Virus record (IMG/VR): IMGVR_UViG_3300009031_000368
Coordinates: 167,715 to 231,714 of that record
Length of the DNA: 64,000 nucleotides
Direction: 5' to 3' (one strand)
DNA from: a virus
Taxonomy: Duplodnaviria > Caudoviricetes
The first letter of the stretch is position 1, and the number at the start of each line of letters is the position of its first letter. Shown piece by piece: positions 51,932 to 58,871 of the stretch. Below the pieces are notes generated by a model, which made no database searches, was not told the origin of the DNA, and saw only the letters and a list, made by a program, of their open reading frames with translations. The position numbers and the translations under genes were made by a program.

Positions 51932-52015
51932 ACTGGTTTTCCAATTGTTGGTTCAGGTTGTCTGTTATCGATGTGCCCACTATGGCATCATTATACAGGT
52001 ATGTCAAGATATATT

Positions 52016-53040: not shown

Positions 53041-53661
53041 CTAACTCCCACAAGTTGCTTCGTAAACGGCCACATTGAATGCATCAGCGAGTTCCCATTG
53101 CGTTTCGGAAACGCCACGCCGCCACCGGCTAGATGTATTTCCTTCCTCAACCGGTTTCCATCCACAAACCCGCATGACATGCACCTGCTGGGCAAATAGT
53201 TCCGCCATTGCCCGATCTCTTACAACATTTAGCGCATACCGGTTTGTGGTACGGCCAGCCAGTTCAACTTCAAATTCACGATATGCCTGCTGCATAAATG
53301 CGTTAACCGTTAGCCATAAACAGTTTAGCTGCTCGCCTTCCTCAACCGGCCAACCTGACCAGCACACATCAACAATCGATGAGCCATCGTTGTCATCTTC
53401 ATTGAATCGACCATAATCGCGCATTTGATTGGCTGCAACCGATAAGAGCGTGAAGGCCAAGTCGATATCGATCAACAGCGTCTGCCCGGATTCATCATCA
53501 GATTCCATCCGTTCGGCCTGAATATCGTTATAACGGCAGACGTCGATCTGTTTACCGTTCAAAGTTACTGGCCGTTGTGCAAGTCGCTCAAGTTCTGATT
53601 CAGACATCCCACCGATGATACGATTAAACAAGTCAACATCGATTTCCATTTGATGCTTCAT
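53041..53661 (-). CDS. hypothetical protein
   Basis: 206-aa ORF; AGGAG RBS. Confidence 0.7.
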   Translation of the reverse strand: MKHQMEIDVDLFNRIIGGMSESELERLAQRPVTLNGKQIDVCRYNDIQAERMESDDESGQTLLIDIDLAFTLLSVAANQMRDYGRFNEDDNDGSSIVDVCWSGWPVEEGEQLNCLWLTVNAFMQQAYREFEVELAGRTTNRYALNVVRDRAMAELFAQQVHVMRVCGWKPVEEGNTSSRWRRGVSETQWELADAFNVAVYEATCGS

Positions 53662-53682
53662 GTCGGTTCTCCTAGTTACCCG

Positions 53683-53817
53683 TTAAGGGATATCGGTCCA
53701 ACCGTCACGATAATCGATATCCTCATCATCTTCATCCCACCAATCGTCTTCATCATCCCAGCTATCGCTGTAATCGTCGTAATCGTCTTCATTCCAAAAA
53801 TCTTCATACTCGTACAT
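53683..53817 (-). CDS. 44-aa hyper-acidic aromatic micro-protein (not in the ORF track)
   Basis: MYEYEDFWNEDDYDDYSDSWDDEDDWWDEDDEDIDYRDGWTDIP; GGAG RBS; TTGACA at 53886-53891. Confidence 0.75.
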   Translation of the reverse strand: MYEYEDFWNEDDYDDYSDSWDDEDDWWDEDDEDIDYRDGWTDIP

Positions 53818-53983
53818 AGCTGATCTCCATTCACAAGTTATGCACATCACCGGTCCACCAGCAATTTGTCATGACTGTTTGAATTTGTCAACCAGAATTA
53901 TTCACTCAAAATTATATGATTACAGGCTATCCTTTAATGCTGGACTATCGCTGATAAAATGATATATTTAGTAGTACTAACTA

Positions 53984-54012
53984 TTGACATAGTCTAATGG
54001 TGCCTATAAAAT
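53984..54012 (+). promoter_or_regulatory. sigma70-type promoter
   Basis: TTGACA-17 nt-TAAAAT. Confidence 0.8.
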
Positions 54013-54019
54013 TAAGAGC

Positions 54020-54232
54020 GTGGTTATGAAAAGAATTGATCAAAGAAACGACTTAAAGACTAGAACTTACAACTTGAGATTAACAAAACAGCAAGCGGCC
54101 GAATTTGATGCGTTTTTGTCGTCTCGAAAAATTGGAATAGTACAGTTTGTTGTTGAATCTGCCGGGTTGACTCCGAGCAGACCAAGAGGTAGGATGGCTA
54201 CAGTTAAGAATATAGACTCTGACTGTAACTGA
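54020..54232 (+). CDS. ribbon-helix-helix-like small regulator
   Basis: KTRTYNLRLTKQQAAEFDAFL...IVQFVVES. Confidence 0.55.
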   Translation: MVMKRIDQRNDLKTRTYNLRLTKQQAAEFDAFLSSRKIGIVQFVVESAGLTPSRPRGRMATVKNIDSDCN

Positions 54233-54295
54233 ACAAATAAAACAGCCGGGTTGACGTACAAAACCAAACCCGGCATACCAACAAGGAATGATATA

Positions 54296-56425
54296 ATGAT
54301 ATCAGATCTTATTGAGTTTGGCAAGAGTAATAATAAAAATCTCGAAAAATATTTAACAACGATATTCGGTGACCTCGAAGAAAACGAACTACATTGGTTT
54401 TATCTATCCAATGACCCAGAGAATAAAATATGTAAACATAAATCCGGATTATGGGCCAACGAACGCAAAGAAATAGACCGCCGAAACAGAAAGCTACAGT
54501 TCAATGTTCACATCAGGCCGAATAGATATAAAAGATTCAAGTGGTTGGTGCTAGATTTTGATATACACGGCAACGAAGAAGACATCGAAATCGGAAAGCG
54601 CCAAATTTTAGCAAAGTTATCATCGTTTGATAAACCGCCGACAATGGTAAATGAATCGAGGAGAGGTTATCATTGTTTCTGGAACATAGAGGAAGGCAGT
54701 ACTGATGAACAGTTCAAAGCCGCCACGATTGGTCTATTTGAAGACCTTAAAGAACAAGCCGGCGATCTGTATCAACTCGATACAAACTGCTTTGAAAAAT
54801 TAGACATTCAAATTAGAATGCCTGGGTCGTTCTATTGGCTGGAGGATGGTACATCATTTAAGTGTAATGTGATTGAACACTCTCCGAAGAATACTTACAA
54901 GGCAGAGCAATTCGCAAAAGTTAAACCTTTATGCACAGATGAAAATTTTAACCATATTACACTCATTGATCATCCCTTCCAAGGTGGTGATTGTTCGGTA
55001 TCTATGAATATCCCTTATTCTGATGGGATGTATCAAAGCCTATTGATCGTTTCTACAGATGGAAATAAGACCAAGCATGCTGAGTGTTCCTACCAGCCAT
55101 CGATGGAATATCGGACAGACGAATCTGGGATAAGGCTTTATGACTCTATTGAGGGGATGACCAAATACTACAACGAACAAGATGTTGCACAATACTTGCG
55201 GGATAAGGGATACATGGTCCCATCCGGGAAGCAACAATTCCATTGTCCATTTCACCAGGATGAACATCCATCCGCCGCAATATTTTATGCCAGCAATCAT
55301 GGCTATTATATGTTCACATGCTTCGCTGCATCATGTCCATTCCGAAATAAATGCCTTTCAATCGTAGGACTTGAAAAGGCTTTCGCAGGAGAAATGATGT
55401 GGAAAACGCTGGGAGAACGTTATGGTGCGAGACTCGATACGGAATGGCAACAGCAACAGACAAAGCGAATATATGACAATATATCTATATTGGATGACTT
55501 GTCAGGATATCCTAACCTAAAGAAATTTATTGATGATTGGGATCTGTTAGGTCGACTTAAGACAGTTTTACGTTCGGTATCAAGCATTTATAAAAATCAA
55601 CAATCTAATGTCAACAACAACCACGTATTCCATTATACGGTAGACCGCGCATGCGAAACATTAAATGCTGCCGGAATAGAGATTGGACGTAAGGCAAGCG
55701 CTGAGTTTTTATCAATTATTTCGGCCGTTGGTTTTATGGTTAAGGTTCCACTGGCAAAACTTCCGGAGCAAATCAGCAACTTTCTCCTAGATAGTAAGGG
55801 AAAACAATTCCATAAGCATTATGCACAATATTTCACAATACCTACATTGACCGATGATGTACTTAAACAGCTAGATCATAATGCAGAGGTACTGCTAAAT
55901 GTTGGTATCACGAGAAGTGGATGGTGCTGGAAAATCCTAAGAAAGTTACTTCCAGAACAGGAATATGGCCTTCTACAGAACGCATATATGCAACACGACG
56001 AAACTGAGTGGGAAGAATGGAACGTAAAAGCAGAAAAAGAAGTCGATGAATTTGTTGAGTTATTGGAGCACCATGTCGACGAATCGTTAAAGACAAGAGG
56101 TGCCTCGTATCTTGCCGATATCGTTAAACATCCTGATTTCAACAAGTTCCCGCTTGCGCTGAAAAAACGTGTATCAAGCTTTTATGGACTGCTTTGCGGC
56201 AAGCTAAATGCTGTCTTGAAACAAGTAACCGATTCAGATATCGTAAGGTATGGATTTAGTTTGTTTGAATCGTTCCCAAAACGAATTATTGAAGCTGTAA
56301 TTCAGCCAATAAAGAGGGTCATTCACCATCATTACGAATACGATGACGATGATCCGATACCTGTTGGGGATGAGACATTGATCGATTATGACTACGGTGT
56401 GGCCGGTATGGATATACCGTACTGA
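54296..56425 (+). CDS. primase/RepB(AEP)-like replication protein with CHC2 zinc finger
   Basis: LVLDFD, ESRRGYHCFW, IRMPGS; FHCPFHQDEHPS...FTCFAASC; AAGGA RBS before MISDL. Confidence 0.75.
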   Translation: MISDLIEFGKSNNKNLEKYLTTIFGDLEENELHWFYLSNDPENKICKHKSGLWANERKEIDRRNRKLQFNVHIRPNRYKRFKWLVLDFDIHGNEEDIEIGKRQILAKLSSFDKPPTMVNESRRGYHCFWNIEEGSTDEQFKAATIGLFEDLKEQAGDLYQLDTNCFEKLDIQIRMPGSFYWLEDGTSFKCNVIEHSPKNTYKAEQFAKVKPLCTDENFNHITLIDHPFQGGDCSVSMNIPYSDGMYQSLLIVSTDGNKTKHAECSYQPSMEYRTDESGIRLYDSIEGMTKYYNEQDVAQYLRDKGYMVPSGKQQFHCPFHQDEHPSAAIFYASNHGYYMFTCFAASCPFRNKCLSIVGLEKAFAGEMMWKTLGERYGARLDTEWQQQQTKRIYDNISILDDLSGYPNLKKFIDDWDLLGRLKTVLRSVSSIYKNQQSNVNNNHVFHYTVDRACETLNAAGIEIGRKASAEFLSIISAVGFMVKVPLAKLPEQISNFLLDSKGKQFHKHYAQYFTIPTLTDDVLKQLDHNAEVLLNVGITRSGWCWKILRKLLPEQEYGLLQNAYMQHDETEWEEWNVKAEKEVDEFVELLEHHVDESLKTRGASYLADIVKHPDFNKFPLALKKRVSSFYGLLCGKLNAVLKQVTDSDIVRYGFSLFESFPKRIIEAVIQPIKRVIHHHYEYDDDDPIPVGDETLIDYDYGVAGMDIPY

Positions 56426-56524
56426 ACGAGCACAGGTAGCCGGATAGAGCGTTTGTGCAATTGATTGCTGGTCATACGACCTTGGTGGATTCGTTTATCT
56501 GTTCGGCGGAAATAATACTTATCG

Positions 56525-58610: not shown

Positions 58611-58871
58611 TCAAAATGGAACATCGCTATCATCATAGTTCTCATCATGTGGTACATAGTGAGTACCAATTTCATACAATTCAAATGCGATATAGGCGTC
58701 TTCACATGTAACCGTGCCATCACAATTCATCCAGAATATCCCGCAACTGTTGTTTGTATCGTCATGGTGTATCATCTCCATCATCGTCATATTCAACAAT
58801 TTCGCGTTGACGCCTGTACGGGCGATTCCGTTGACTGTACCATTCCGTATAACGATCTTGGTTCGATACAT
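58611..58871 (-). CDS. hypothetical protein
   Basis: ORF in gene string. Confidence 0.5.
   Translation of the reverse strand: MYRTKIVIRNGTVNGIARTGVNAKLLNMTMMEMIHHDDTNNSCGIFWMNCDGTVTCEDAYIAFELYEIGTHYVPHDENYDDSDVPF

Follow-up and report, generated by a model that had tools for sequence, protein, structure and literature searches.

ArdA, T4 Arn and lambda Gam are folded phage DNA mimics, and an acidic segment of another kind, the C-terminal tail of the T7 protein gp2.5, was reportedly described by Marintcheva and colleagues in 2008 as competing with the interaction between the OB domain and single-stranded DNA (ssDNA). The T7 protein gp5.9 is a coiled-coil dimer that imitates the phosphates of DNA, and small size and strong acidity have both been associated with DNA mimicry (PMC9836394). 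A disordered segment, the gp2.5 tail competes against ssDNA at the surface of the OB-fold and also binds replisome partners (PMC10359462). In the complexes formed by the C-terminal peptide of SSB (SSB-Ct, DDDIPF-COOH), the side chain of the C-terminal Phe fills a pocket and the carboxylate makes the key salt bridge (PMC5872125). DSS1 shuts down the DNA binding of BRCA2 HD-OB1 (PMC11329725) and is a DNA mimic on OB-fold proteins (PMC11329725; Zhao 2015, as cited in PMC8442969). Herein we analyze a micro-protein of 44 residues encoded by a small open reading frame (micro-ORF) of an uncultured jumbo phage (Duplodnaviria; Caudoviricetes). It lies at positions 53,683 to 53,817 of a window of 64,000 nucleotides (nt), which is the last 64 kb (positions 167,715 to 231,714) of the 231,714-bp IMG/VR virus record IMGVR_UViG_3300009031_000368, a genome estimated to be 76% complete.

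Based on its composition, its predicted disorder and its close match in composition to the gp2.5 tail, we propose that the micro-protein may be a disordered polyanion, made early, that serves as a decoy for a surface binding nucleic acids or acidic tails, a reading to which we assign a probability of roughly 0.4. Our best guess is therefore an acidic nucleic-acid mimic of the disordered-tail type and not of the Ocr, ArdA or Gam type.

Composition of the micro-protein

The preliminary description of this DNA had the coordinates and the peptide of the micro-ORF exactly right, and the strand is the minus strand (53817 to 53683). The peptide contains 17 Asp and 6 Glu (23 acidic residues) together with 5 Trp, 5 Tyr and 1 Phe (11 aromatic residues) and has a net charge of -22, with one negative charge per 1.9 residues. 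R37 is the sole basic residue, in agreement with the single basic residue counted earlier, and only three residues are aliphatic, so that Asp/Glu, basic, aliphatic and aromatic residues make up 52%, 2%, 7% and 25% of the chain, respectively. A unit of the form W-[N/D]-[E/D]-[E/D]-D occurs three times, starting at residues 8, 20 and 27, and the C-terminus reads ..GWTDIP, the chain ending in Pro. Plus-strand translation of this segment yields a string rich in Ile, Val and Phe.

Measured against the amino-acid frequencies of the long ORFs of the phage, the probability of at least 23 Asp/Glu in 44 residues is 7e-10 per ORF, and that of at least five Trp is 4e-4. Among the 3,035 ORFs of at least 25 amino acids in the 231.7-kb genome, the micro-ORF is the top acidic outlier, with an acidic fraction of 0.44 in its longest form versus 0.30 for the runner-up, and no paralogue of the micro-protein was found among them. 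The DNA inside the micro-ORF carries modest repeats, namely GTAATCGTC in two copies and a 29-nt family of 62-76% identity.

Translation signals and codon use

The GGAG ribosome-binding site (RBS) that had been read in front of the micro-ORF is present at a distance of 7 nt from the ATG, and the AGGAG of the following gene, which encodes a protein of 206 amino acids, stands at the identical 7-nt spacing from its own start. The genome has 102 long ORFs, and GGAG, AGGA or GAGG stands in front of many of them. Two alternative in-frame starts further upstream would extend the product to 54 residues (Table 1), and they are preceded by a weaker GGTGG motif only. Gene callers report the 54-residue form on nine contigs and the 44-residue form on three, the peptide being identical on all 12; the RBS evidence favours the 44-residue start. 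The micro-ORF had been described as unlisted, which is true of the ORF list used at that time, but public collections already predict both the 44-residue protein and the 54-residue form from the upstream ATG.

The codon use of the micro-ORF is that expected of a gene of this phage. Specifically, GAT and GAC occur 13 and 4 times (72:28 in the genes of the genome) and GAA and GAG 4 and 2 times (74:26), and the synonymous-codon score is 0.065 per codon, compared with 0.058 +/- 0.052 in real genes cut into 44-codon chunks and -0.014 +/- 0.054 in chunks read antisense, a score that separates gene from antisense by only about one standard deviation. Considering these signals in the sequence, we think it likely that the product is translated, and the micro-ORF is probably a real gene.

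Disorder and comparison with described acidic proteins

Run on the single sequence, AlphaFold2 gave zero secondary structure for the micro-protein, with a pLDDT of 56 and a pTM of 0.11, although low confidence is to be expected of a single-sequence run whatever the truth. It is the composition that we regard as decisive, the AlphaFold result being weak alone: a chain with these fractions of acidic, basic and aliphatic residues has no core material, so that it should be an extended polyelectrolyte, and hence a disordered polyanion, and not a globular protein. An amphipathic helix was considered and rejected, as the aromatic residues (positions 2, 4, 7, 8, 13, 16, 20, 26, 27, 36 and 40) have no helical periodicity.

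The comparison with T7 proteins, measured from the T7 record, separates the micro-protein from the folded mimics and places it beside an acidic tail. The fraction of Asp/Glu, the net charge per residue and the aliphatic fraction are 0.52, -0.50 and 0.07 for the micro-protein and 0.58, -0.50 and 0.08 for the last 26 residues of gp2.5, whereas they are 0.29, -0.24 and 0.35 for Ocr (gp0.3) and 0.25, -0.15 and 0.31 for gp5.9. Folded mimics present their carboxylates in the geometry of a DNA backbone on a compact and usually dimeric fold, for which a hydrophobic core is required. The micro-protein is, like Ocr and gp5.9, small, strongly acidic (44 residues, net charge -22) and putatively early, and a role as a competitive inhibitor is plausible. 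However, Ocr and gp5.9 are compact dimers with a hydrophobic core, which the micro-protein, with its aliphatic fraction of 0.07 and pLDDT of 56, cannot form, and by sequence or profile (Pfam, PHROG, NCBIfam and PDB sequences) it matched no known mimic family. The preliminary description had proposed a DNA mimic with Ocr, Arn, ArdA, Gam and anti-CRISPRs as its models. A candidate nucleic-acid mimic remains a reasonable reading, but the composition, the absence of a predicted fold and the lack of a family match do not support a likeness to those models.

The likeness to the gp2.5 tail extends to the near-identical acidic, charge and aliphatic values and to local words, SWDEDDE in gp2.5 corresponding to SWDDEDD and WWDEDDED in the micro-protein. 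A tail of this type is a disordered tract in which Asp/Glu account for some 50-60% of the residues while aliphatic and basic ones are nearly absent, a description that fits the micro-protein. In contrast to gp2.5, the micro-ORF stands alone and its product is not attached to an OB-fold ssDNA-binding domain; it is also about twice as long as the tail and richer in aromatic residues (0.25 versus 0.08), and it ends in Pro where gp2.5 ends in ..DGDF, with a functionally critical Phe, and gp4 in ..DTDF. A partial resemblance to SSB-Ct is seen in the acidic run followed by D-I-P at the C-terminal end, but the micro-protein ends in W-T-D-I-P and thus has no hydrophobic-Pro-aromatic end with a free carboxylate and lacks the terminal aromatic residue that defines binding (PMC5872125). 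Finally, DSS1/Sem1 and CSNAP are likewise small, highly acidic and disordered, with Trp or Phe flanked by Asp/Glu (PMC8442969). They differ in being eukaryotic and 57-70 residues long, DSS1 has a helix, and the micro-protein has the higher charge density and, compared with DSS1, the larger share of aromatic residues. It does not match the DSS1_SEM1 profile, nor any Pfam family at E <= 0.1.

Promoter and transcription unit

The phage has a sharply conserved, sigma-70-like class of early promoters of the form AAATTTCTC-TTGACA-N14-TGn-TATATT, of which the whole genome has 13 copies exact in the core and some 25 other good matches, nearly all of them on the minus strand; those in the window include the five of Table 1. 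The TTGACA that had been noticed ahead of the micro-ORF is real, and the micro-ORF is the first gene behind it, but the -10 element is poor and the site is only a degenerate copy of a promoter. Scored with a matrix made from the phage's own 13 exact-core early promoters, it scores 8.2 bits, where the canonical copies score 31-52, and takes rank 44 among 463,340 positions. It retains TTGACA, the 17-nt spacer, the TG and A2/T6 of the -10 element and is without the upstream TTTCTC, and a generic promoter scan listed no promoter at this TTGACA. From the sequence, the site is probably a weak, degenerate member of the early-promoter class.

A stronger copy of the early promoter (21.4 bits) at 52007, inside the string of genes 3' of the micro-ORF, suggests a short unit consisting of the micro-ORF, the 206-residue orphan, a YqeY/GatB-like protein (163 amino acids) and an acidic orphan of 151 amino acids. 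The arrangement of promoters and genes makes it most likely that the micro-ORF heads this short early transcription unit.

The direct repeat TGACAAATT, in two copies 19 nt apart (53863-53890 of the window, minus strand), overlaps the -35 and -10 elements of the putative micro-ORF promoter. The repeat pair lies between this promoter and a divergent RHH-like gene, and the repeats may be the operator of the RHH protein.

Relatives and conservation

We class the micro-protein as a strict orphan. When 5.8 billion clusters were searched by word index, at near and at longer lengths, only the micro-protein itself came back and no longer protein that contains it, and an exhaustive HMMER (phmmer) search of 1.84 billion representatives likewise returned nothing else. 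There was no match to a Pfam, PHROG or NCBIfam family; the best hits among PDB sequences (E = 2-4) were unrelated, and the best score in the ESM Atlas (0.78) was under the level of chance hits. A tblastn search of GenBank phages was blank, a result made uninformative by the low-complexity filter.

The locus was also approached through its neighbours and through patterns. As queries, the 206-residue protein retrieved no related locus in IMG/VR or JGI metagenomes, the primase-like gene of the adjacent cassette had no match in IMG/VR or GenBank phages, the YqeY-like gene yielded no relative locus, and a 2H-domain gene retrieved distant jumbo phages only, at about 30% identity. Megablast of 4.5 kb of the region gave no match, a scan of IMG/VR for the pattern W-[DE]5-W-W found three proteins, all unrelated, and a degenerate back-translation of DDWWDEDDEDIDY had no match in JGI metagenomes.

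A hypothetical decoy mechanism

We now put forward a hypothetical mechanism in which the peptide would behave as an extended polyanion that carries Trp and Tyr "stickers" every few residues. By our own arithmetic, an extended chain of this charge density would place its charges about 7 Å apart, which is roughly the spacing of phosphates in stretched ssDNA. The carboxylates would take the place of the phosphates, or of the acidic side chains of a tail, in a basic groove or rim of the target, and the groove thus blocked would be the one in which the target ordinarily binds single-stranded nucleic acid or an SSB-type partner's acidic tail. The Trp and Tyr residues would plug pockets meant for stacked bases or for the aromatic anchor of such a tail. 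The decoy is modelled on the gp2.5 tail, which competes with ssDNA for the OB-fold of gp2.5 itself and binds the polymerase and helicase of T7, and on DSS1, which blocks DNA binding by OB-fold domains. Its target could equally well be a host or a phage protein.

Several considerations weigh against this proposal, among them the narrow margin of the codon score and the low confidence expected of the AlphaFold run, as given above. The micro-ORF is known from sequence alone, from which we infer its translation, and its promoter is a poor match. Unlike the tails of gp2.5, gp4 and SSB, in which a terminal aromatic residue is critical, the peptide has no such residue, and likeness in composition to an acidic tail is not homology, since Asp/Glu-rich tracts all look alike. 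No homologue was found at any distance in the two large protein searches, no related locus was reached via neighbours or patterns in IMG/VR, JGI metagenomes or GenBank phages, and the only copies known are identical, leaving no diverged relative from which a signal of purifying selection could be read. Moreover, the repeats inside the micro-ORF fit growth of the tract via short duplications, which allows a neutral origin by expansion of codon repeats.

Neighbouring genes and other acidic-tailed proteins

The next gene in the unit encodes the 206-residue orphan, for which AlphaFold gives a poor model (pLDDT 49.7). Its sole relative in the databases is identical except for a 13-residue deletion (QIDVCRYNDIQAE, positions 38-50). 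An indel variant thus exists in this gene, whereas the micro-protein is invariant on its 12 contigs. No RNA element was recognized at the micro-ORF, there being no Rfam match and the z-scores of the RNA folds (-0.83 and -0.61) not being unusual. On the other side of the micro-ORF, the RHH-like and primase-like genes form a plus-strand cassette (53980-56430) with a G+C content of 0.40 versus about 0.44-0.47 in the minus-strand DNA around it, to which its GC skew is also opposite; it has the look of an inserted module.

Several other proteins of the phage have an acidic tail with a terminal aromatic residue (..GMDIPY, ..DDSDVPF, ..EFDEFDF and ..DNDDDY). The first is that of the AEP/CHC2 primase-like protein, whose SSB-Ct-like tip of D-I-P-aromatic recalls the acidic tail found on the T7 protein gp4. 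The second belongs to a small ORF of 86 residues that has no family match, and it is much closer to the SSB tip DDDIPF than is the end of the micro-protein. The third ends a 297-residue protein and the fourth a 292-residue protein encoded next to an SSB-like ORF. This SSB-like ORF, a tail-less OB core of 90 residues, is the phage's only match to the SSB family and lies about 132 kb from the micro-ORF; no gene of the gp32 family was found in the 231 kb of the record. The idea that the micro-peptide is the missing tail of the 90-residue SSB-like protein was set aside as speculation, as nothing links the two.

Table 1. Positions of the micro-ORF, its signals, its neighbours and other acidic-tailed or SSB-like genes of the phage (window coordinates unless another reference is given).
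Feature	Position	Strand	Details
Micro-ORF	53817-53683	minus	ATG 53817-53815, 44 codons, TAA 53685-53683
GGAG ribosome-binding site	53828-53825	minus	7 nt 5' of ATG 53817
Alternative in-frame starts	53845-53850	minus	GTG 53850, ATG 53847; add MCITCEWRSA, giving the 54-residue form
Putative micro-ORF promoter	53863-53891	minus	TTGACA 53891-53886, 17-nt spacer, TG 53871-53870, CAAATT 53868-53863
Mirror ORF	53650-53823	plus	57 residues, Ile/Val/Phe-rich; judged to be an antisense artefact of the acidic codons
Spacer	53662-53682	minus	21 nt; includes AGGAG 53673-53669 of the 206-residue protein gene
Gene of 206-residue orphan protein	53041-53661	minus	next in unit; sole database relative has a 13-residue deletion
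Early-promoter copies in window	57687, 35838, 31911, 11651, 2197	minus	class motif
Near-consensus promoter	53984-54012	plus	drives RHH-like and AEP/CHC2 primase-like genes
RHH-like gene	54020-54232	plus	divergent from micro-ORF unit
AEP/CHC2 primase-like protein, 724 residues	54251-56425, tail 56330-56425	plus	acidic/aromatic end ..HHHYEYDDDDPIPVGDETLIDYDYGVAGMDIPY, ..GMDIPY
Small ORF, 86 residues from first ATG (perhaps about 59 from internal Met)	58611-58871	minus	ends ..ENYDDSDVPF
SSB-like ORF, 90-residue OB core, tail-less	89164-89433 of record (L002 1459-1731)	minus	PF00436, 20 bits, below cut-off
292-residue protein gene, phrog_17202	L002 554-1432		next to SSB-like ORF; acidic tail ..DNDDDY

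Alternative explanations

It is unlikely, though far from negligible, that the micro-ORF is a young or neutral one, a GAT/GAA/GAC/TGG-rich tract that expanded through slippage within the leader 5' of the 206-residue protein gene and is by chance open behind an ATG and a GGAG, poorly translated or untranslated and without function. The strict orphan status, the short internal DNA repeats and the weak promoter all fit such an origin, and by our estimate a GGAG-type motif suitably placed before a random ATG is not rare (a few percent). Nevertheless, the in-phase codon use fits that of phage genes, the RBS spacing equals that of the neighbouring gene, and the genome is densely packed. Simple GAT/GAA slippage would also not give five Trp codons (P = 4e-4), and all 12 contigs carry an identical sequence despite the indel variant of the gene next to it. 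A functional tie to that neighbour, which we hold to be distinctly unlikely, could take the form of a detached acidic N-terminal arm (a split gene or read-through isoform) or of a dedicated partner peptide, that is, a chaperone, inhibitor or immunity-like peptide acting on the 206-residue protein or on some other protein that the unit encodes; our estimate covers both forms jointly. The two ORFs are only 21 nt apart in one unit, both are orphans and are found together, and they share a frame, with a single TAA and seven sense codons between them (..DIP*RVTRRTD-MKHQ..). However, a shared frame has a 1-in-3 chance, the downstream gene has its own AGGAG and ATG, RNA folding at the junction found no significant coupling hairpin, and the 206-residue protein, whose own N-terminal half is fairly acidic, offers no obvious basic partner. 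Recoding is unlikely because TAA is the commonest stop of the genome (49 of the 113 long ORFs), and recoding of the TAA was set aside on this ground. A further alternative is a cis-acting leader ORF, in which translation of the NAY (Asp/Tyr/Asn) and Trp codons, and not the peptide itself, would tune the downstream genes to the tRNA pool, for example after the action of an anticodon nuclease. NAY codons do account for 23 of the 44 codons versus about 17% in the genes of the genome, and tRNA- or RNA-repair-type genes occur in the unit and the genome, a YqeY/GatB-like protein with a tRNA-binding domain being encoded downstream. Yet the NAY surplus is a surplus of Asp only, the 21 nt to the next start leave no room for an attenuator, the RBS of the 206-residue protein gene is strong, and no significant RNA structure sequesters it, making this explanation highly improbable. 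Scarcely credible is the idea that the mirror ORF on the plus strand, which would encode a hydrophobic membrane peptide, is the true gene. Its frame is open and its product resembles a transmembrane segment, but hydrophobic mirror frames are expected in antisense from GAT/GAA/GAC runs, and its codon use is atypical, 13 of its 16 Ile codons being ATC versus 38% in genes. The mirror ORF would start at TTG or ATG without a Shine-Dalgarno sequence, lies antisense inside a minus-strand unit and collides head-on with the start of the 206-residue protein gene, and its score of 0.013 per codon, while within about one standard deviation of both, is closer to the antisense null (-0.014 +/- 0.054) than to the gene mean of 0.058.

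The remaining alternatives accept an acidic effector and differ from the disordered decoy in what it would imitate. In one, the ..TDIP end would act as a mimic of the SSB-Ct docking tip, occupying the pocket of a host protein (ExoI, RecQ, PriA, DnaG or chi) and competing SSB off its partners. The D-I-P end does resemble D-D-D-I-P-F, the acidic run is like that of an SSB tail, and the same phage has a primase-like protein that ends in MDIPY and an 86-residue ORF that ends in DDSDVPF, but we consider this quite improbable given that the chain ends in Pro and the defining terminal aromatic residue, the requirement according to PMC5872125, is absent. In the other, the micro-protein would be a folded mimic of double-stranded DNA, of the Ocr, ArdA, Arn, Gam or gp5.9 kind, and would block RecBCD, BREX, a type I restriction enzyme or a nucleoid protein. 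In favour of this, it combines small size with high acidity, two properties that PMC9836394 associates with mimicry, and its ORF is first behind an early-type promoter. Against this, no fold is predicted, only three aliphatic residues are available for a core or a coiled coil, its charges are twice as dense as those of Ocr or gp5.9, and there is neither a family match nor a meaningful match to a PDB sequence; we judge it to be marginally less probable even than the docking-tip mimic.

Implications

The essence of our proposal is that the acidic chain of the micro-protein, with its interspersed aromatic residues, would itself be the decoy. If the peptide is not made, the micro-ORF simply adds another low-complexity orphan to the ORFs of a jumbo phage. 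If it is made and binds a target that itself binds nucleic acids, then phage DNA mimics would include, besides folded scaffolds, a polyanion that is bare and disordered, and the peptide would provide a minimal, easily synthesized 44-residue probe or inhibitor of that target, be it an enzyme of the SSB interactome, a nuclease or a defence sensor. A broader generalization, which we offer only tentatively and think more doubtful than the proposal for this one peptide, is that phages make free-standing, fold-less "tail-only" polyanions of about 40 residues, with a negative charge at every second residue and Trp/Tyr in between as surrogates of bases, that serve as decoys for ssDNA or SSB tails against the OB-fold, nuclease or sensor proteins of the host. 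If this is true, there would be a class of fold-less nucleic-acid mimics that are smaller and twice as charged as Ocr or gp5.9 and that are invisible to searches by homology or structure. Anti-defence screens based on homology or structure would miss such peptides, and composition-based screens of early micro-ORFs would be needed to find them.

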